This document shows positions 1 to 56,165 of a stretch of DNA of 64,000 nucleotides, piece after piece. Location: positions 9,148 through 73,147 of the forward strand of contig JAMPXW010000003.1 of the NCBI GenBank assembly GCA_023701005.1, given 5' to 3'. Positions within the stretch are counted from its first letter, which is position 1. Each line of letters begins with the position of its first letter. Under the pieces are notes generated by a model. That model was not told the DNA's origin and searched no databases. It worked only from the letters and a program-made list of their open reading frames with translations. This DNA comes from Burkholderiales bacterium (GTDB lineage: Bacteria > Patescibacteriota > Minisyncoccia > Phycocordibacterales > UBA9973). Position numbers and translations under genes: made by a program.

Positions 1-482
1 ATGGTGATGGAAGTTTTTCTGTAGACATGGGTTTGCCTATTTTTTCTCATACAGACTTTCCAAATAATTTTTTAGAACTAGAAAATTATTTATTTAATTT
101 TGTTTCCATGGGTAATCCCCACGCCGTGGCACAAATAAATAATTTAGAAGAAATAAATATAAAAACATTAGGCCCTAAAATAGAAAATAATAAAATTTTC
201 CCCAATAAAATAAATGTTGAATTTATAGAAAAAATTAATGATACTCATTTCAAAGTAAAAGTTTGGGAACGTGGATGCGGAGAGACACTTTCTTGTGGCA
301 CAGGAGCTTGTGCTATCTTTGCAATTTTAACCTCAAACCCTCCCGCTAGGCAAAACCTAGCGGAAACAAAAGAAATAACTTTAGAGTTTCCTGGAGGCAA
401 ATTATTCCTTTCAAAAAACGAAAAGGACCACGTTATTCTGCGTGGCCCCGCTACTTTCGTATTTAAAGGAGAAATAAATTAA
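1..482 (+). CDS. dapF: diaminopimelate epimerase, C-terminal part (5' end lies outside window)
   Basis: Reading frame open to window start; motifs GNPHAV and ERGCGETLSCGTGACA match DapF active-site region. Confidence 0.75.
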   Translation, partial: GDGSFSVDMGLPIFSHTDFPNNFLELENYLFNFVSMGNPHAVAQINNLEEINIKTLGPKIENNKIFPNKINVEFIEKINDTHFKVKVWERGCGETLSCGTGACAIFAILTSNPPARQNLAETKEITLEFPGGKLFLSKNEKDHVILRGPATFVFKGEIN

Positions 483-1561
483 ATAGTATTTCCTGTCTTA
501 ATAACATGATCAACTAATGTATGGGTATACCCCATTTCATTATCATACCATCCAAGCACTTTCACTAAGTTGCCACCCACAACTCTCGTCATTTCTAGGT
601 CTGCGATAGATGCATGAGATTCTCCAAGAATATCTGAAGAGACTAATGGCTCTTTTGTAACTGCAAACAATTTCTCCCATTTTTTATCTTTTGCAGCTTT
701 TTCTAAAATTTCATTCACTTCTTCTTTGGTAGTATTTTTCTTTGAAATAAAAGTAATATCCACTATCGATCCAGCTGGCACTGGCACTCTGATAGATATA
801 CCATCAAACATTCCTTTCAAATCTGGGAAGGCTTCTGTCACAGCTATGGCTGCACCAGTCGAACTCGGAACTATATTTTGTGCAGCAGCACGTCCTTCAC
901 GTAAATCCCCGCCTTGACTCGTCGGCGAGGCAGGTTTTTTGCTTGGCCCATCGACGAGGGCTTGTGAAGCAGTATATCCATGAACAGTATTCAAAATAGC
1001 TTTTTCTATTCCTAAAGATTCGTGCAATATAGAGATGAGTGGAGATGCGGCATTTGTAGTACAAGAAGCATTGGAAGTAATATCACAAGTTCCAAATTTA
1101 TCTTCATTTATTCCGAGTAATATTGTCTCTCCTTTCACACTATCATCTCCTCCCTTGGCAGGAGCAGATATGACAACTTTTTTAGCACCTTGATCAAGAT
1201 GAAATTTTGCTTTATCAAAAGAAGTAAATAATCCAGTAGACTCGACAACGACATCAATATCCAAATCTTTCCATGGAAGTTTTGTTGTATCTTTTTCCGA
1301 GAGAAATTTAATTTCTCGAGGTCCTTCCATAGCTTTAGCGGAAAAGGACGGGTAAATTAATAAATTTCCATTTTTAACTTCTACTTTATGTTCCCAATTT
1401 CTGTACACAGTATCATGACGCAACAAATAAGCGAGGCTTTCTATTGAACCAAGATCATTCACCGCAATTATTTCTAATTCTGGTCTCTCCCAAGCAATTT
1501 TTAAAAAAGCCCTACCTATTCTCCCAAAACCATTTATAGCTACTTTAGTTTTATTTTTCAT
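479..1561 (-). CDS. gap: glyceraldehyde-3-phosphate dehydrogenase
   Basis: INGFGRIGR Rossmann motif, SNASCTTN catalytic Cys motif, S-loop; carries an in-frame GC-rich insert (see repeat 906-938). Confidence 0.92.
   Translation of the reverse strand: MKNKTKVAINGFGRIGRAFLKIAWERPELEIIAVNDLGSIESLAYLLRHDTVYRNWEHKVEVKNGNLLIYPSFSAKAMEGPREIKFLSEKDTTKLPWKDLDIDVVVESTGLFTSFDKAKFHLDQGAKKVVISAPAKGGDDSVKGETILLGINEDKFGTCDITSNASCTTNAASPLISILHESLGIEKAILNTVHGYTASQALVDGPSKKPASPTSQGGDLREGRAAAQNIVPSSTGAAIAVTEAFPDLKGMFDGISIRVPVPAGSIVDITFISKKNTTKEEVNEILEKAAKDKKWEKLFAVTKEPLVSSDILGESHASIADLEMTRVVGGNLVKVLGWYDNEMGYTHTLVDHVIKTGNTI
906..938. repeat. GC-rich mini-element (family 1) inserted in-frame in gap; encodes PASPTSQGG
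   Basis: tccccgccttgactcgtcggcgaggcaggtttt; near-identical copy at 10203-10232; ~70% GC in an AT-rich genome. Confidence 0.6.
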
Positions 1562-8091: not shown

Positions 8092-8994
8092 ATGGTAAAT
8101 AGCAAAAAAAATCTTAATTTTATTTTTTGGGGAACACCAGATGTAGCAAAAGAAACATTAGATATTTTAAAAGAAAATGGCTATTTGCCTTCACTCATTG
8201 TGACTTCCACAGACAAACCACAAGGTAGAAAAATGATATTAACTCCCCCTCCTGTAAAAGTTTGGGCAATAGAAAACAATATTCCATATATTCAACCAGA
8301 AATTTTGTCTGGCAAAGATTTGCTTTTAGCGGGTGTCTCGCAGGCTGACGAGCCGAGAGGCAGCGCTCCGTTAGTAAACGGAAACAGCGACCCGATAAAA
8401 GTAGAATCCTTGCCAGATTTATCTATCGTGGTAGCTTATGGGAAAATTATTCCTGAAGAAATTTTAAATATGCCAAAATTTGGTTCTATAAATATACATT
8501 ATTCTCTGCTACCTAAGTATCGTGGAGCATCACCAGTAGAAAGTGCTATTTTAAATGGTGATAAAGACACAGGTGTCACAATACAAAAAATGGAATACAA
8601 AATGGATACTGGTCCCATTATTTCCACAGAAAAAACAGAAATATTGCCTACAGAAAAAGCTTCCGAATTAAGAAAAAGATTAATTAAAATAGGAGGAGAT
8701 CATTTAGTAAAAACTTTACCAAAGATTTTAGACAACACCATAACTCTAACTCCACAAAAGGATGAAGATGCTACTTATTGCAAAAAAATAAAAAAAGAAG
8801 ATGGCTTGATAGATCTTAATGATGATGCACAAAAAAACTATAATAAATTTAGAGCTTATTCTACATGGCCTCGTTCTTTCTTCTTTTTAGGAGAAAAAAG
8901 AATTATCATCACAGACGCAATACTAGAAAATAATCTTTTCACTATTAAAAAGATCATCCCCGAAAGTGGTAAAGAAACTAGTTACACTAAATAA
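8092..8994 (+). CDS. fmt: methionyl-tRNA formyltransferase
   Basis: formyl transferase N domain (HYSLLPKYRGASP) and C domain; contains 66-nt GC-rich in-frame insert. Confidence 0.88.
   Translation: MVNSKKNLNFIFWGTPDVAKETLDILKENGYLPSLIVTSTDKPQGRKMILTPPPVKVWAIENNIPYIQPEILSGKDLLLAGVSQADEPRGSAPLVNGNSDPIKVESLPDLSIVVAYGKIIPEEILNMPKFGSINIHYSLLPKYRGASPVESAILNGDKDTGVTIQKMEYKMDTGPIISTEKTEILPTEKASELRKRLIKIGGDHLVKTLPKILDNTITLTPQKDEDATYCKKIKKEDGLIDLNDDAQKNYNKFRAYSTWPRSFFFLGEKRIIITDAILENNLFTIKKIIPESGKETSYTK
8329..8394. repeat. GC-rich in-frame insert (family 2) in fmt linker; encodes AGVSQADEPRGSAPLVNGNSDP
   Basis: ~60% GC; shares 17-nt core ggctgacgagccgaga plus tcg with intergenic site 56065-56084; absent from E. 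coli-type Fmt linker between QP and VVVAYG. Confidence 0.55.
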
Positions 8995-10096: not shown

Positions 10097-12052
10097 CTAA
10101 TATTTAATACTATGCACTAAGGCCTTGAGAACAATATCGAATTCTATCGTAGCGACTCCGATAACTTTATCTCCTCCGCCATAATAAATATACAGCAGTT
10201 TATCCCCGCCTTGACTCGACGAGGCAGGTTTTACTATCATACCACAAGGAAAAACGACATTATTCACAATTCCTATTTTTTCATATTCCTCTTTTGGTTC
10301 AAATATAGGGTCAGAGCTTCTAGCGAGGACAATAGCCGGATCTTTCAAATCTAATAACAAAAATCCTGTTCTATAAGTATTATGACTTTTAGAAACCCCA
10401 TGATATAAAAGAAGCCAGCCGTATTTTGTCTTAAGTGGTGGAGCAGAGATACCTACTTTTGCACTATCCCAAGTGTTTATTCGGGGTCCTGCTATTCTAA
10501 TACATTTTTTTACCATCTCATGTTTAAAATCTAAAGTAGAAAGATAATCTCCACAAATTTCATTACCGACACGATGAATTATAAAATATCCAAGTGGAAA
10601 CTTTTCAGGAAATATACAAGCATCCTTATCATCTATCCCCTGCGGAGTGATAAGAAAAGGTTTTTCCCAATTCCATTTATTTGAAATAAAATCTTGTTCA
10701 GTAATAGATGATATGGCTACTCTAGGTGGAGAGATACTATCATAAGCTGTATAACATAAATAAATATTCTTCCCTATTTTTGTAAGCCTAGGATCTTCAC
10801 AGCCAGAATTAGAATTATTTACTTTTTTATTTTCAAAATCTTCTCTAGGTACATAAACGGGCATTTTTAATCTCTTATCTATTTTTGTACCATTTTTTGT
10901 CATAGCATAGCCCATAGTAGAAGTATTATCATTAGACATTGCCCTATATAAAATATGTATCTTCTTGTCCAACAAGATAGTGGCTGGATTAAAAGTAGCT
11001 AAAGATTCCCAAGCATTTTCTTTTTTAGGTGAAATAATTGGATTATTTTTAAATCTTTTCAAACTAAATTTCTCTTTATATTTAAAATGTATACTTTGAA
11101 TTAAGTCTTCGAGATTAACTTTCGCCAAACATACAGTAGCATCTGCTGCTCCATAATATAAATTTAAGGTTTTTTTATCGATGATAGCTCCAGTAGGAAA
11201 AACAATATTAGGAACATAGCCAGAAAGTTCATAATGTTCTAAAGGTACAAGTATCGGGCCTTCAGTCTTGCCAACAATCTTTCTAGGATTCTTCAAATCC
11301 AAAATTACTGTCTCAATACCAAATATTTTATCTAAATTACTAGAAGATGCAAAATAGTTCTGAATATGAGAATAAATAAATAGCCAACCATCTTTCGTCT
11401 TTATTGGAGGAGCACCCACTTCTATGTGGTCAGAAGGAAAACGCTTCAAATCGATAGCATAATCATCTACATTCTTTTCCCACTTATTCCAAAATTCTAC
11501 AGACCATAAATCTTCTATCCTATCTAACATCGCGAAGACAGTTTTTGATGGTGGAGAATCCGTATGATAAGAAAATACAACTACAATTTTCCCATTTATT
11601 CTCTCTGGGAAAAGGGCCATAGCTTTGGCATTAAAAGGTGTCACCAAATGTCTCTCTTTTATTTTGTTTAAATCATCTGAAACAGCTACCGCAACCTTGA
11701 TACCCTCTCTTGAAAAAGGATATTTTGAAAGTGCAGTATAAAAAGTATAAAATTTGCCTTCAAAAAATGTAACTCTAGGGTCTTCACAGCCAAATTTTTC
11801 CCAATCTTCTTTTGGTGTGATAAATGGTTTTCTATTTTTAAAGTTAATACCATCTTTACTCTCAGCGATCCCTATCACAGAATTTTGTCTAGGATTTTGC
11901 AAGACATCAACTGCAGATATCGCTCTGTAAAGTCCATATATTTTACCCTTATATTTAATTGGACAAAGATTAAAAGTAGCAAATTCTTCCCAGTAATGAT
12001 CTTCCTTTGGTATTAAGATTGGATTGTGTTCTGATCTTTTTACAACAAACAT
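10097..12052 (-). CDS. tandem-duplicated GH130-like glycosidase/phosphorylase (two beta-propeller repeats)
   Basis: two copies of NPIL..W(E)..ATFN(P)...YRA..., ...YYG(A/G)(A/G)D pattern (GH130/DUF377-like); carries family-1 GC-rich insert near C-terminus. Confidence 0.55.
   Translation of the reverse strand: MFVVKRSEHNPILIPKEDHYWEEFATFNLCPIKYKGKIYGLYRAISAVDVLQNPRQNSVIGIAESKDGINFKNRKPFITPKEDWEKFGCEDPRVTFFEGKFYTFYTALSKYPFSREGIKVAVAVSDDLNKIKERHLVTPFNAKAMALFPERINGKIVVVFSYHTDSPPSKTVFAMLDRIEDLWSVEFWNKWEKNVDDYAIDLKRFPSDHIEVGAPPIKTKDGWLFIYSHIQNYFASSSNLDKIFGIETVILDLKNPRKIVGKTEGPILVPLEHYELSGYVPNIVFPTGAIIDKKTLNLYYGAADATVCLAKVNLEDLIQSIHFKYKEKFSLKRFKNNPIISPKKENAWESLATFNPATILLDKKIHILYRAMSNDNTSTMGYAMTKNGTKIDKRLKMPVYVPREDFENKKVNNSNSGCEDPRLTKIGKNIYLCYTAYDSISPPRVAISSITEQDFISNKWNWEKPFLITPQGIDDKDACIFPEKFPLGYFIIHRVGNEICGDYLSTLDFKHEMVKKCIRIAGPRINTWDSAKVGISAPPLKTKYGWLLLYHGVSKSHNTYRTGFLLLDLKDPAIVLARSSDPIFEPKEEYEKIGIVNNVVFPCGMIVKPASSSQGGDKLLYIYYGGGDKVIGVATIEFDIVLKALVHSIKY
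10203..10232. repeat. GC-rich mini-element (family 1) copy, in-frame in GH130-like gene; encodes PASSSQGG
   Basis: tccccgccttgactcgacgaggcaggtttt, 30/33 identity to gap copy; the N-terminal repeat of the same protein lacks it. Confidence 0.6.
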
Positions 12053-30102: not shown

Positions 30103-30342
30103 AAACCAAGGAAAATGGTAAAATGAATTTACCATAATTTATGGTGACAAAACCTAAACCAGAGCAATCTGGCATGGTTCAAATATCCCACGCGAATAGA
30201 AACGGCCACATAAGCCGACATTCATTCGCGTGGGTCCACAATCGAAAGGTTGTGGGATAGTTCCGAAAGGAGCTGTCGTCGTGTCTTGTGTGGCCATTTG
30301 TGTTAAACAAGCCGACTATTATCAACTAAAACCCACGCGAAA
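30103..30342 (+). other. GC-rich highly structured leader/ncRNA candidate with mutually exclusive pairings
   Basis: cccacgcgaa at 30187 and again at 30329 just before the ATG, complementary ttcgcgtggg at ~30231; hairpins atggtaaa/tttaccat/atggt, ccaga-gcaa-tctgg, cccacaa-tcgaaagg-ttgtggg. Confidence 0.45.
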
Positions 30343-33326: not shown

Positions 33327-35036
33327 ATGGAAAAAGAACAACAAAAATTAAACAAATACTTTATTTATTGCAGAAAGTCTACAGACAGCGAAGATAGACA
33401 AATACAATCATTATCAGATCAAATTAGGATATTACAAGAAATGGCAGAAAAGAAAGGTTTAATGATAGTAGAAACCTTACAAGAAGCTAAATCTGCTAAA
33501 GCACCCGGTAGGCCAGTATTCACGAAAATGATTGAGAGAATTAGTAAAGGTGAAGCCAATGGAATAATCACATGGAAATTAAATCGATTAGCGCGTAATC
33601 CTATAGATGGTGGAACTATCAGCTGGCTACTCCAACAAGGAGTGATTAAAGAAATCCTCACCCCGGAAAAAAGCCACTATCCAAATGATAATGCATTAAT
33701 CATGTCAGTAGAATTAGGTATCGCAAATCAATTCATTAGAGACTTAAGTAGTGATGCTAAGCGTGGTATAAAAACAAGAGCAACACAAAAAGGTTACCCA
33801 AATGGAGTTGCTCCTATAGGATACTTAAATGATCTTGTGAAAGCCAAAGGAGATCGTGGCTGGAAAGTAGACGAAGAAAGATTTCCAATAATAAAACAAA
33901 TACTAAAAATGTTTGCCACGGGTAAATACTCAGTGAGACAAATGACTAGTATTGCTAACGAAGAAATGGGATTGAGAACCTTTATAAGGAAAAAACAAGG
34001 TGGAAAGAAAATCGTTGTATCTTACATGGATGTGATATTAAAAAATCCAGTATATGCCGGCTTCTTCTTTCTCAATACAGATAATAGTAGGCATGAAGTA
34101 AACAAAGAAATTCCAAGAATGATCTCTGAAGAAACATATTGGAAAATACAAAAAATTCTTGGAAACAGAGGACGCCCTAGGCCTCACAAAAATATAAAAG
34201 CTTTCGCTTATACAGGTCTCACCAAATGCGGTGGCTGTGGTGGCTCTGTGACGGCTGAAGAAAAATACCAATTAATATGTTCCAGTTGTAAGCATAAATT
34301 CGCCTATGCAAGTAAAAACGAATGCCCCAAATGCAAAACAAAGATAAAAGACATGGAAGATCCTACTTACTTACACTATACCTACTATCACTGCACAAAA
34401 AAGAAAAGAGAACTAAAATGCAAAGAAAGATCAGTGGTGGATACAAAAATCGATGAGACGCTGGCAGACTACTATAAAAAAAACTTAAAAATATCAGCCG
34501 ACTTGTCTAAGTGGTGCATAGAAAATCTACGAGTAATTGAGAAAGAAGAAAAGCAAAATGATTACGAGATAAAAGCGTCTTTACAGAAAACCCTGACATC
34601 AAAAGAAAAAGAGCTTTCAGAACTAGCACTGATGCGCGCCAGAGGGCTTTTGGACGATGAAAGCTTCATTACAGCACAAAATACAATAAAGGAAGATATT
34701 AGCGCCCTTAAGCGAAAATTGAGCGAATTTGAGCATCTTGATCCAGAAAAAGCAGAAAGGATTTACCAAGCATTCGACCTATCGCAAGGCATAGACGAAA
34801 TTATCAGAAATGGCACGCCTGAAGAGAAAAAATCAGTATTATTGGAAATTGGTTCGAACCTAACTCTAAAAGACAAAACAATCAATGTTTATAACAGCGA
34901 ATTGTATTCTGCAATAATAAATGGACTACATTTAGCAAAGTCTGAAATTGAGTGGTTCGAACCTGAAAATTATCAAGCAGAACAAGAACAAAACGCCTCT
35001 TTCGAGGCGCTTCGTTCAACCATGCTCCGGGGGTAG
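33327..35036 (+). CDS. large serine recombinase (integrase type: resolvase catalytic domain + recombinase domain + zinc ribbon + coiled coil)
   Basis: YCRKSTDSEDRQ..SLSDQ catalytic Ser region, LNRLAR, CGGCGGS...CSSCKH...CPKCKT zinc ribbon; start set at MEKEQQ (ORF track start 33219 overlaps a conserved hairpin); stop overlaps tRNA-Asn 3' end. Confidence 0.8.
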   Translation: MEKEQQKLNKYFIYCRKSTDSEDRQIQSLSDQIRILQEMAEKKGLMIVETLQEAKSAKAPGRPVFTKMIERISKGEANGIITWKLNRLARNPIDGGTISWLLQQGVIKEILTPEKSHYPNDNALIMSVELGIANQFIRDLSSDAKRGIKTRATQKGYPNGVAPIGYLNDLVKAKGDRGWKVDEERFPIIKQILKMFATGKYSVRQMTSIANEEMGLRTFIRKKQGGKKIVVSYMDVILKNPVYAGFFFLNTDNSRHEVNKEIPRMISEETYWKIQKILGNRGRPRPHKNIKAFAYTGLTKCGGCGGSVTAEEKYQLICSSCKHKFAYASKNECPKCKTKIKDMEDPTYLHYTYYHCTKKKRELKCKERSVVDTKIDETLADYYKKNLKISADLSKWCIENLRVIEKEEKQNDYEIKASLQKTLTSKEKELSELALMRARGLLDDESFITAQNTIKEDISALKRKLSEFEHLDPEKAERIYQAFDLSQGIDEIIRNGTPEEKKSVLLEIGSNLTLKDKTINVYNSELYSAIINGLHLAKSEIEWFEPENYQAEQEQNASFEALRSTMLRG

Positions 35037-35062
35037 GGATCGAACCTACGACCAATCGCTTA

Positions 35063-35631
35063 CACTTTATCTCCTATTACTAGAAGTGTGGACTATATCA
35101 TCTCCATGTTCATAAAATTTATGAATTTAGAAGCAAGGCGCTTCGCGCTCTAACATAAATTAGAGAGCTACTCCATAAATGGATAGTCTCTACACCTTCC
35201 TCAATTTAAAATTGAGGCTTGGCTCGGGATTACCCCATAAGGGCTTCCCCGAATTCACCTTGTTTTTCAACCTAAGTTTTCTTAGGAAGCTGCGTAATAC
35301 CGTCATGTATTTCCATATGACAATTTGCACACAAGAGAACACATTTATCAATTTCTTTTTTGATACGTTCCCATGACCTAGTTAACCCCCTAGAAGAAAG
35401 ATCAAAATCTTTTTCTTTTGGATTTAAGTGATGAAAACTTAATGATCTCTGGCATTTATTATAGCCACACACAATACACTTACCGCCTTTATAGTCTCTA
35501 GCCATTTCACGAAGCTTTTTTCTTCTTCTTGTAACAGCCATTACCATATATTCTCTACGGTCGGCATATGTTCGTTTTTCTACTCGTTTCTTTTTGGTAT
35601 ACACAAGTAGATTATACCACAAACATCCGAC
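35063..35631 (-). mobile_element. group I intron within tRNA anticodon loop
   Basis: 5' exon ends in U, intron ends in G; P7 pairing agacta...tagtc and P8-like hairpin tccatttatgga downstream of ORF. Confidence 0.65.
35272..35622 (-). CDS. HNH homing endonuclease encoded in the tRNA intron
   Basis: CIVCGYNKCQRSLSFHHLNPKEKD...LLCANCHMEIH HNH motif; non-ATG (TTG) start in track. Confidence 0.7.
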   Translation of the reverse strand: MWYNLLVYTKKKRVEKRTYADRREYMVMAVTRRRKKLREMARDYKGGKCIVCGYNKCQRSLSFHHLNPKEKDFDLSSRGLTRSWERIKKEIDKCVLLCANCHMEIHDGITQLPKKT

Positions 35632-35832
35632 ACAGGCGACCGCTCTACCGCTGAGCTACCCCGGAATATTTTATTTTCAATTCTTCTTTTAAATACCATA
35701 ATTTCCACCAAACTATCTACCTATAAGTAGATAAGCCCCGGAATATTATTCAATTAAAAGAACTTTTTATATCTTAACAGAAAATAACTAAAAAACAAGA
35801 TGGCTTTTCGTTTTAGTGTATAATTAAATACA

Positions 35833-42104: not shown

Positions 42105-42435
42105 AAGTCTGGTAAGATAATACCGGTCCTGTATTGAATAGTTGCGCTCCGGCCTCGGCTGGAGTGAGGAAAGTCCGAACACATAGTCTCGGCTTAGGCC
42201 TTAGACAAGCGTAGTGGGTAACGCCCATCGGGAGCAATCCCAGAGTTGAGAACAGTGACGAACCGATTTAGTTCGGGTGAAACGGCAAAATACTTACGTG
42301 TGTGCAAGATCGTGTTCTGCGAAGCTTCATGCGAAGCAGAAAGAATCGCTTGAGCCCGAGCGTAAGCGAGGGCCTAGACAAATAACTATTGCCTTTATTG
42401 GTACAGAATTCGGCTTATAGATACAAGGCTCACAT
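42105..42435 (+). ncRNA. rnpB: RNase P RNA, bacterial type A
   Basis: GAGGAAAGUCCGAAC (P4 5' strand), GGGUAACGCC, GGGUGAAACGG, GCUUGAGCC, ACAGAAUUCGGCUUA (P4 3' strand) in canonical order; ends approximate (+/-20 nt). Confidence 0.85.
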
Positions 42436-48661: not shown

Positions 48662-49483
48662 TTATTTTTCTACCTGCACAAATTTCAATTCAAAAATATT
48701 TATTGGACTTATGAGTAATGCTTTTTGAAAAGAATCTCTCGGATCAGAAATGATTGTCTCTACTGTGCCTATCACATGTGATGTTATCCCTGGCAAAACA
48801 ACCTCTGTCCCGTTTTGTAAAACAAAATCTCTAGGTAAAATCATTTCAAAATTTCCTCCACCTCTACCTACGACTTGCATAAAAGTATCTCCGCCTAGGC
48901 TCGTGCTAGTCGAGACTGGACTACCAGAAACAACAACTTCTGTCTTTTCTCCTGGGTTAGAGTATAAAACTACTTTTGAAGATCTAGGATACACCTCTTT
49001 TATATAACCAACAGGGGTATCACCTAATACTAAAACTTTTTGTCCTTCCACCACTCCATCTTTTGTTCCAATATCTATGATCAATGTATCATAAGGTGAT
49101 TGATTTGGCTTAGATAAAATACTACCTAAAATTAAATTTTTATTTTCTTGTTTACGATTAAGAATTTCTTTTATTTTTAAATTTTCGTCTGAAAGAGTAT
49201 CATAATTTGTCATTCTCGCATTATTCTCATCTAATTTTAATTTTAGACTTTCATTTTCTGCTACCAATGCTTTTTTAGATTTTAAATAAGGACCAAAATT
49301 AGAAATCTTCATACTAAAATTATTTCCTAAAGAAATAACTGGTCTAAAAATTATATTAGAAACATATGATAAACCATCAAAAACTCCATTTTTTAAAAAA
49401 ATTAGAATAAACAAAACTACAACAAAAATTGAATATTTTAACCATCTATTTCTTTTTATTTTTCTATCTAGGAGGTAATTCAT
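48662..49483 (-). CDS. mreC: rod shape-determining protein MreC
   Basis: N-terminal TM, coiled coil, C-terminal beta domain; directly downstream of mreB. Confidence 0.7.
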   Translation of the reverse strand: MNYLLDRKIKRNRWLKYSIFVVVLFILIFLKNGVFDGLSYVSNIIFRPVISLGNNFSMKISNFGPYLKSKKALVAENESLKLKLDENNARMTNYDTLSDENLKIKEILNRKQENKNLILGSILSKPNQSPYDTLIIDIGTKDGVVEGQKVLVLGDTPVGYIKEVYPRSSKVVLYSNPGEKTEVVVSGSPVSTSTSLGGDTFMQVVGRGGGNFEMILPRDFVLQNGTEVVLPGITSHVIGTVETIISDPRDSFQKALLISPINIFELKFVQVEK

Positions 49484-55962: not shown

Positions 55963-56064
55963 ATTTATCTATATAATATAACATTTTTTAAGAAAAAAGC
56001 AACAAAAAAATACAAATTAGTGCTTTCTAATAAAAAAACCTAAAAAGAAAGTTTTTAAGGGGTT

Positions 56065-56084
56065 TCGAGGCTGACGAGCCGAGA
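56065..56084. repeat. intergenic copy of GC-rich family-2 core (tcgaggctgacgagccgaga)
   Basis: 20-nt match to fmt insert core at 8341-8360. Confidence 0.5.
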
Positions 56085-56165
56085 ATTTCAGGATTTTTTA
56101 AGCTTCAAAAAATCCGTACCGACAAAAACTTTGCTTTTTAGGTTTTTAAATTATTATATTTAAAA

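Follow-up and report, generated by a model that had tools for sequence, protein, structure and literature searches.

A 24- to 36-nt GC-rich mini-element found in frame in GAPDH and other conserved genes of Patescibacteria and a few other phyla

The gene gap, for a type I glyceraldehyde-3-phosphate dehydrogenase (GAPDH), lies near one end of the 64,000-nt stretch of contig JAMPXW010000003.1 that was analysed here (the window), and it carries in frame a short GC-rich insert of nine codons. Two further genes of the window contain related inserts, one encoding a two-domain GH130 protein and the other being mreC, where the copy has decayed (Table 1). The coding strand of gap reads AAA AAA [CCT GCC TCG CCG ACG AGT CAA GGC GGG] GAT TTA CGT, with GGG CCA AGC preceding, and the protein accordingly reads VDGPSKK-PASPTSQGG-DLREGRAAAQNIVP; the base composition of the window is about 30-36% GC, as against the high value of the insert. 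For the window GAPDH, AlphaFold2 gave an unusable model (mean pLDDT 56.7), and the insert was mapped instead by sequence alignment to the solved T. maritima GAPDH (1HDG), where it falls at the K192/D193 junction, in the S-loop. In the GH130 protein the insert is near the C-terminus, flanked by VFPCGMIVK and DKLLYIYYGGGD. The first domain of this protein, which is paralogous, lacks an insert at the equivalent place, and this gap in the aligned first domain suggests that the GH130 insert, too, is in a loop. The gap and GH130 copies align base for base, their 9 + 14 arm bases being identical and the sole difference being a central stretch of 1 versus 4 nt. The right-arm 15-mer has two exact matches in the window, where 0.2 would be expected even at 3 mismatches. 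A covariance model built from the element family found three copies in the window and nothing further above noise, with scores of 45.8 bits (E = 1e-12) for the gap copy, 40.7 bits for the GH130 copy and 36.1 bits for the mreC copy. The last score is not independent, as this copy was part of the training alignment of the model; the mreC copy is, however, backed independently of the model by separate searches. An earlier note on this DNA had described a GC-rich in-frame insert in the GAPDH S-loop and the same DNA in an unrelated gene near 10203-10232, and both observations were borne out. As the nearest homologues of the window GAPDH bear the names Nomurabacteria, Paceibacterota and Patescibacteria, the window is placed among the Patescibacteria. 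The name "Burkholderiales bacterium" on the GAPDH record disagrees with this Patescibacteria-like (Nomurabacteria/Paceibacterota-like) gene content, probably due to a binning or naming error.

Table 1. Copies of the mini-element, their host genes and other features of the window
Feature	Position	Strand	Description
Mini-element CCTGCCTCGCCGACGAGTCAAGGCGGG	908-934	-	27 nt, 74% GC, in frame in gap, encodes PASPTSQGG
Asp codon GAT	905-907	-	directly 3' of the gap insert; with AAA at 935-937 forms the pre-insertion target AAA^GAT
gap (host gene 1)	479-1561	-	type I glyceraldehyde-3-phosphate dehydrogenase; domains Gp_dh_N and Gp_dh_C
Mini-element CCTGCCTCGTCGAGTCAAGGCGGG	10205-10228	-	24 nt, in frame in the GH130 gene, encodes PASSSQGG (K-PASSSQGG-D)
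GH130 gene (host gene 2)	10097-12052	-	two-domain GH130, beta-1,4-mannooligosaccharide phosphorylase-like; PF04041, E = 1.5e-91
Decayed copy CCAGTCTCGACTAGCACGAGCCTAGGCGGA	48890-48919	-	30 nt, in frame in mreC, encodes PVSTSTSLGG
mreC (host gene 3)	48662-49483	-	PF04085 MreC
fmt	8092-8994		
GC-rich block TCGCAGGCTGACGAGCCGAGA in fmt	8347-8367	+	21 nt, SQADEPR
GC-rich hairpin in dapF	338-366	+	perfect 8-bp stem CCGCTAGG-CAAAA-CCTAGCGG, encodes PPARQNLAE
Structured non-coding region	56028-56153	both	29-nt inverted arms, contains GGGGTTTCGAGGCTGACGAGCCGAGAA
Group I intron	35070-35359	-	Rfam
GC-rich segments beside the intron	~35002-35054 and 35622-35667		suspected tRNA-like sequence
LOOT RNA	30151-30277	+	Rfam
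RNase P RNA, class A	42126-42433	+	Rfam

The insertion could be followed base by base at two sites for which an empty allele is known. The closest GAPDH, P0003 of locus L058 (L numbers denote loci), with 94% amino-acid and 90% nucleotide identity, reads AGT AAG AAA|GAT TTA CGT, and compared with this uninterrupted sequence exactly 27 nt have been added in the window gene between AAA and GAT, with zero bases duplicated or lost and with unambiguous boundaries. The second empty site is that of the GH130 orthologue in L061, where FPCGMVLK|DKLLYIYYGG stands against FPCGMIVK-PASSSQGG-DKLLYIYYGG in the window; exactly eight codons are absent from L061 and the site, again K|D (AAA^GAT), is clean. No target-site duplication was found at either of them. 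Third-codon-position identity among the insert-bearing GAPDH genes is only 0.4-0.6 and hence saturated, near the insert and elsewhere alike, whereas the inserts in those same genes are 93-100% identical. The element must therefore be far younger than its host genes, unless its DNA is directly constrained. Since third-position identity is no higher near the insert than elsewhere, the element did not arrive with gene segments exchanged by homologous recombination, and this route of spread was rejected. The element thus inserts precisely, without target-site duplication, and is much younger than the genes that carry it.

The possibility that the extra residues are an ancestral or convergent protein loop, or an assembly artefact, was considered next to these comparisons and its probability is negligible. 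The peptide is compatible with a loop, and nothing more can be said for this explanation. Near-identical GC-rich DNA occurs in unrelated genes and phyla, and the clean in-frame junctions come from independent assemblies of many projects. The earlier note had argued for an insertion rather than an ancestral loop encoded by AT-rich codons, and this holds, as the S-loop inserts read at the DNA level, at nine loci, are all GC-rich with CCTGC...GGCGGG ends. Both the ancestral-loop and the artefact readings are refuted by the empty orthologous sites (L058 gap, L061 GH130) and by the scattered occurrence of the insert among GAPDHs. Most of the 120 nearest GAPDHs are 340-342 amino acids (aa) long and lack an S-loop insert; seven have one, and these seven are scattered over the gene tree, the nearest neighbour of each being insert-free.

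All seven inserts lie between KK and D. At this identical bond at least five forms of the insert were found: one of 24 nt, two of 27 nt that differ at the centre (CCGACG versus CCGTCG), the form CCTGCCCGCCCGGGTTCGGCAGGCGGG encoding PARPGSAGG, and a 36-nt hairpin form, CCTGCCCGAACGGCTGACGGCGTTCAGTCGGGCGGG, encoding PARTADGVQSGG. The gap bond was entered at least five separate times, by different variants. Other bonds are used repeatedly as well, since a second GAPDH site, APAK^GG, is filled in L050, L054 and P0097, and the LeuRS site DEQVI^DG.CERC is filled by four different variants. Of the 83 coding copies from which target statistics were collected, 86% have a purine at -1, as against 51% in the background; the upstream codon is enriched 3.7-fold for Lys and the downstream codon about 5-fold for Asp/Glu; GAT (7.8-fold) and GAA (4.6-fold) are enriched at the downstream codon, an effect that is partly forced by the search pattern. 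A G at +1 was imposed on most copies by the search pattern, but both empty sites have this G natively, and some copies have C or T as the next base. The preferred target is purine^GA(T/A), typically AAA^GAT (Lys|Asp/Glu).

Flanks as alike as AAA...GAT at many sites could also be produced without any dedicated enzyme, if template switching during repair or replication, or gene conversion, pasted in the element from imported DNA or from a copy elsewhere, through microhomology at A-rich/GA junctions. The lack of a target-site duplication, the low copy number, the centres varying from 1 to 9 nt in length and the partial copies in L154 would all fit such an origin. It appears unlikely nevertheless, as the junctions are base-exact in all cases examined and no donor flank is carried along, as one and the same bond was entered at least five times by different variants, and as the identity of the flanks is not raised, so that there is no sign of conversion tracts.

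To survey other genomes, the pattern CCTGCCTCG-N0-9-GAGTCAAGGCGGGG was used on one genome per species (185,579 genomes) and gave 56 loci in 45 assemblies; a scan of JGI/ENA metagenomes gave a further 95 stretches. By record title the hosts are Saccharibacteria; Paceibacterota, including Nomura-, Giovannoni-, Staskawicz-, Moran-, Buchanan- and Nealsonbacteria; Levy- and Gottesmanbacteria; Howlettbacteria; WOR-3 (5 loci, all in one metagenome-assembled genome); Omnitrophota; Bacteroidota; and two "Gammaproteobacteria" records. The latter two (L024 and L045) have a LeuRS context matching that of the Gottesmanbacteria locus L028 and are likely label errors, like the Burkholderiales name. Genes for a resistance-nodulation-division (RND) efflux pump and purF and purD are usually absent from bacteria of the candidate phyla radiation (CPR). 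As the Bacteroidota and Omnitrophota contigs carry an apparent RND efflux pump, purF and purD (translations inspected by eye, without a domain search), at least some of the non-CPR hosts look real. An element with identical arms therefore recurs across major lineages of Patescibacteria and in a few other phyla and is not specific to the genome of the window.

Among 55 GTDB copies, 23 are the 24-mer CCTGCCTCGCCGAGTCAAGGCGGG, which makes it the commonest form; together with the G that follows, the search pattern matches it as a 25-mer. In the 27- and 30-nt forms, 3 or 6 highly variable bases are added at the centre of this 24-mer. That the unit is exactly 24 nt follows from head-to-tail arrays with this period in two loci. 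L142 (4209-4376) has seven such units in the gap between a LytR-family gene and pth, and L154 (~958-1130) has full and partial units inside a 591-aa open reading frame (ORF), giving PASPSQGG repeats. A type III toxin-antitoxin array was considered for L142 and rejected, the downstream gene being that of peptidyl-tRNA hydrolase (pth) and not of a ToxN-like endoribonuclease.

The element can be drawn as a hairpin, UGCCUCG(C)...(G)CGAGUCA, in which 93% of the cells of the alignment are paired, and one pair covaries, U3-A24 being changed to A3-U24 in three variants. An alternative and mutually exclusive outer stem, CCUGCC/GGCGGG, is broken in those same three variants. As the arms were fixed by the way in which the copies were found, this evidence for a hairpin is weak. 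Several sister subfamilies, in contrast to the main one, form long, good hairpins. Further sequences with the ends CCTGCC...GGCGGG gave 30 matches in 1.25 Mb of loci, in both orientations, versus 1 in shuffled sequence; since same-ended sequences are about 30 times commoner than in shuffled DNA, the family must be broader than the subfamily of the window. Two members occur together in a MiaB-like radical SAM ORF of L072, where PASPLTSQGG belongs to the main subfamily and ASPPAGRAGA comes from CCTGCCCGTCCGGCAGGCGGG read on the opposite strand. Constant arms joined by a variable 1-9-nt centre might also be what is left after excision of a larger transposon or intron, whose retained ends, CCTGCCTCG and CGAGTCAAGGCGGG, were joined imprecisely. 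This is very improbable: no arm parted from its partner by a long interior was found in the 1.25 Mb of loci, the essential host genes could not have carried a full-length element, and exact 24-nt tandem arrays are not expected from footprints.

The pooled set from all sources contains 114 unique copies, about 80% of them within ORFs. Sense orientation, phase 0 and a length that is a multiple of three (3n) are combined in 92 of the 114, which encode PAS(P)x0-2SQGG; 79 of these lie in ORFs that reach 150 aa or more, the other 13 in shorter or truncated ones. Three copies are antisense in a long ORF (PRLDSARQ), two are sense in phase 2 (NLPRQ..VKAG), and the remaining 17 have short or no ORFs or other configurations. 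The phase-0 peptide, PAS[P/S/T]-x0-2-SQGG, is mostly followed by D, E or G. Ten hosts were confirmed by Pfam, namely UvrB, topoisomerase I (TopA), LeuRS, RpoB, enolase, ATP synthase alpha (AtpA), NAD-dependent DNA ligase (LigA), GyrA, RNase J and RpoC; TsaD, RecG, a histidine kinase, an HtrA-like protease and a class A penicillin-binding protein were recognised by eye. The ten copies whose length is not 3n are all in non-coding DNA, and none of them is flanked by the halves of a split ORF. This removes the circularity of defining coding copies by their open frame, and it favours read-through by the ribosome over splicing or bypass. A ribosomal bypass or frameshift signal was rejected, as the frame used has no stop, the 3n length is universal in genes and split ORFs do not occur. 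Within genes, then, the element is retained almost only in sense orientation, in phase 0 and with a 3n length.

Several causes of this bias were considered. Non-coding copies are roughly 9 co-oriented versus 6 anti-oriented to the neighbouring genes; as this is little bias, orientation is not obviously driven by replication, and replication direction as its cause was rejected. The purine-rich target could favour one frame by itself, since AAR|GA sites in the window's own genes are 42% in sense phase 0 and 23% on the antisense strand. However, it accounts for only part of the bias, about 2.5-fold being expected from it and at least 5-fold being observed. Phase 0 gives Pro, Ala, Ser, Gln and Gly, four other open frames give peptides rich in Arg, Cys or Leu, and the sixth frame has a stop. 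The rest of the frame bias is best explained by selection against the peptides of the other frames, which would have been removed.

The non-coding hosts include an rplJ leader, a cobalamin riboswitch, a 23S-5S spacer, a terminator loop (L037) and a 120-nt repeated unit. Copies in the rplJ leader were seen in L013 (4101-4130), L036, L040, L041 and L121, where the element folds into a helix, with a terminator and then rplJ-rplL downstream. The leader-bearing genomes are closely related and Paceibacteria-like, their L10 proteins sharing 75-84% identity, and the distant rplJ leader of L108 has an unrelated AT-rich hairpin at the same place; the leader copies are probably one old insertion kept as an RNA helix. 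An origin of the element in the L10 leader was rejected on the same grounds, that the leader genomes are closely related and that the leader of L108 has a different hairpin. One copy lies within the call of a cobalamin riboswitch aptamer (RF00174) in L006 (2246-2274, minus strand) and another in the 23S-5S rRNA spacer of L103 (153-184, minus strand). A master copy in rRNA or another structural RNA was rejected as well, no exact match examined falling inside an rRNA gene. On contig DHGX01000001 (L038, L051 and L056, at about 18.5, 24.1 and 33.0 kb) three copies of a conserved stretch of non-coding DNA, each about 120 nt long, lie within 15 kb, in the order AT hairpin, element, CGAGCGAAACAAACA, small hairpin, without an Rfam match. 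No Rfam family overlaps the element, either in the window or in the non-coding host loci.

These non-coding copies raise the question of whether the element might be a functional nucleic-acid module, that is, a protein-binding or regulatory hairpin of RNA or DNA that is selected at the level of the nucleic acid and whose peptide is merely tolerated. Its presence in conserved non-coding RNAs (the rplJ leader, the L006 riboswitch, the L103 spacer and the DHGX01 unit) would be accounted for in this way, as would the invariance of the arms across lineages whose host genes are saturated at synonymous sites, and the overwhelmingly sense orientation of coding copies. Set against this, orthologues of essential genes that are 90-94% identical differ in whether they carry the element, decayed copies exist, the non-coding copies are of mixed orientation, Rfam has no matching family, and the L108 leader, with its unrelated hairpin, indicates that the leader needs a helix at that place and not the sequence of the element. 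A functional module is decidedly unlikely on balance.

The explanation that we favour, and consider probable, is that of a translated mini-element similar to repetitive extragenic palindromic sequences (REP) and to Rickettsia palindromic elements (RPE), mobilised in trans and filtered by selection on the encoded peptide, in other words an ultra-short, non-autonomous insertion family. The element would simply be transcribed and translated, adding a coil rich in Pro, Ala, Ser and Gly (PASPSQGG) to a surface loop. Because it would add merely such a coil, it could persist in essential proteins of genomes that have almost no intergenic space. The bias in frame and orientation would arise from purifying selection on the peptides of other frames, together with a target motif that is commonest in sense phase 0. 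Insertion would also recreate a G^GA target at the element's own 3' edge (GGG^GA), a simple route to tandem arrays. The hairpin UGCCUCG(C)...(G)CGAGUCA, together with the CC and AGGCGGG tails, would be the signal recognised by the mobilising enzyme, which might, speculatively, be a single-strand transposase of the IS200/RAYT-like Y1 (HUH) type. Y1 enzymes are established, for IS608 and the REP-RAYT system, to act on single-strand hairpins and to insert next to short motifs without duplication (PMC3116915). A 219-aa Y1_Tnp/RAYT-like protein is encoded in L060 between gap and dapF, genes that are adjacent in the window and separated in L060 (5476-7201) by three extra ORFs including this one; homologues occur in L044 and L018.

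A number of observations weigh against this explanation. For a selfish repeat the element has few copies, just one in most 8-kb loci and about 13 more per Mb, and this makes arms that are identical across phyla hard to explain; such identity would need either frequent horizontal input or a constraint on the DNA sequence itself. Conservation of the arms, like that of the G at +1, is partly imposed by the search pattern. Shuffled interiors fold as well as that of the main subfamily, leaving a hairpin of short stems with one covarying pair. No copy was found in 2.9 million viral contigs, and carriage by phages was rejected on this basis. Translation of the insert is deduced from its reading frame. 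The best NCBIfam match of the L060 Y1 protein is REP-associated tyrosine transposase (RAYT), at 30.6 bits, far under the curated 80, and a Y1 homologue is missing from the window. REPs typical of the flanks of Y1 genes were looked for, and no cognate hairpins or copies of the element flank the Y1 gene of L060, the sole locus where this could be judged. The Y1 protein is thus a putative candidate, and no mobilising enzyme is tied to the element. The low copy number together with the invariance of the arms leaves some room for a functional hairpin or for templated insertion without an enzyme. A site-seeking "homing" cassette, in which a conserved enzyme, shared or exchanged among Patescibacteria and co-resident WOR-3, Omnitrophota and Bacteroidota, repeatedly writes the invariant 24-nt hairpin into AAA^GA-type sites and into one and the same bond of essential genes, is a doubtful proposition.

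The element was also compared with known families of short mobile DNA, and it fails at least one defining feature of each one tested. The earlier note had likened it to RPEs, which are about 150 bp long, form ten families and are found only in Rickettsia, with 44 copies in R. conorii (PMC10969869). The likeness is in behaviour, both being palindromic repeats that sit in frame in loops of unrelated housekeeping proteins and are translated in a manner compatible with the fold (PMC10969869); for the element here the insertions are in unrelated conserved genes and retention of the peptide is deduced from the frame. Membership does not hold, as the unit is 24-36 nt long, against about 100-150 bp for members of the RPE sequence families, and as the element is GC-rich in an AT-rich host, low-copy and spread over many phylum-level lineages with identical arms. 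The small dispersed repeats (SDR) of cyanobacteria that form heterocysts, reportedly described by Elhai et al. in 2008 (Genome Res 18:1484; cited in PMC3116915), are said to be mobile units of about 21-27 nt with hairpin potential, lying in genes and adjacent to or nested in one another. By this description they share with the element the size of the unit, tandem or clustered copies and intragenic positions, the support for a hairpin being weak here; they differ in taxa and sequences and in being high-copy per genome, in contrast to a low-copy element with a very wide host range.

GC clusters duplicate a short target, and byp elements are skipped by the ribosome. The latter, from Magnusiomyces, were reportedly described by Lang et al. 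in PNAS in 2014 and are likewise short GC-rich palindromic mobile DNA. Both are organellar, in contrast to the element here, whose lack of a duplication and strict 3n length with an open frame favour ordinary translation. The GC clusters of yeast mitochondria, of which the element is reminiscent as GC-rich DNA in an AT-rich genome, are short GC-rich palindromic mobile DNA that invades very AT-rich genomes, coding regions included (PMC4478555). REP and REPIN sequences are GC-rich imperfect palindromes of 20-40 nt, non-autonomous, and thought to move as single-strand hairpins (PMC3116915, PMC3733652). The element resembles them in being GC-rich, short and non-autonomous, and in the RAYT-like Y1 gene present in relatives. 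However, REPs are extragenic, tagged, abundant and specific to a species or clade, whereas the element is mostly intragenic (about 80% inside ORFs), low-copy (about 13 further copies per Mb) and cross-phylum, and the REP tag GTAG/CGTC (as defined in PMC3733652) is absent from the consensus CCTGCCTCGCCGAGTCAAGGCGGG on either strand. Intragenic miniature inverted-repeat transposable elements (MITE), such as QMITE of Coxiella, are non-autonomous and can fuse in frame with host ORFs (PMC5896051, PMC10969869). They measure about 100-400 bp, end in clear terminal inverted repeats, duplicate their target and have a parent insertion sequence. None of these traits was found for the element: it has only an imperfect 6-nt inverted repeat (CCTGCC/GGCGGG) and no duplication at the two sites, and no full-length insertion sequence with its ends was seen, separated arms being absent from the 1.25 Mb of loci. 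DNA uptake sequences (DUS/USS) are excluded by a density of 3 copies in 64 kb versus about 1 per kb and by clean insertions rather than point mutation. The earlier note had also supposed that nothing of this kind had been described for such genomes, and no description was found in the literature searched, by exact sequence, by peptide or by concept in CPR/Patescibacteria. It had underestimated the scale, as the element recurs across lineages and re-enters the same GAPDH bond. In-frame selfish mini-palindromes are known as such; unusual here are the 24-nt size, the invariance across phyla and the repeated use of identical sites in essential genes.

Other GC-rich features of the window may be of a related kind. 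The block in fmt belongs to an extra, lineage-specific segment of Fmt and is identical in the fmt gene of L061 despite diverged flanks; it may represent a second family of in-frame mini-elements. A motif related to it is contained in the structured non-coding region near 56 kb, which was also listed for L036, L150, L081 and L135; the reverse complement of the GGGGTTTCGAGGCTGACGAGCCGAGAA motif occurs just upstream of rplJ in L036 and L150, without an Rfam family (best E = 0.44). DapF of L060 is three codons shorter at the place of the dapF hairpin, and the hairpin of the window may be an in-frame insert of another family. The group I intron, LOOT RNA and RNase P RNA found by Rfam are unconnected with the element, and the GC-rich segments beside the intron are suspected to be tRNA-like from their base composition.

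If confirmed, an element of 24 nt would be among the smallest mobile elements known and one that lives mainly inside essential genes. Its copies show where RpoB, RpoC, GyrA, GAPDH, enolase and other proteins naturally tolerate an insertion, and they can mislead marker-gene alignments and phylogenies. It also provides a short, defined substrate for biochemical tests. Should the "homing" cassette prove to be true, it would represent a new minimal insertion mechanism, and it would naturally mark the passage of DNA between episymbionts and the organisms around them. The invariance of the element and the repeated use of the gap bond point to a conserved insertion machinery or to intense horizontal flow of DNA among uncultured groundwater bacteria and, if confirmed, the element illustrates a way for selfish DNA to survive in streamlined genomes that leave almost no room between genes.

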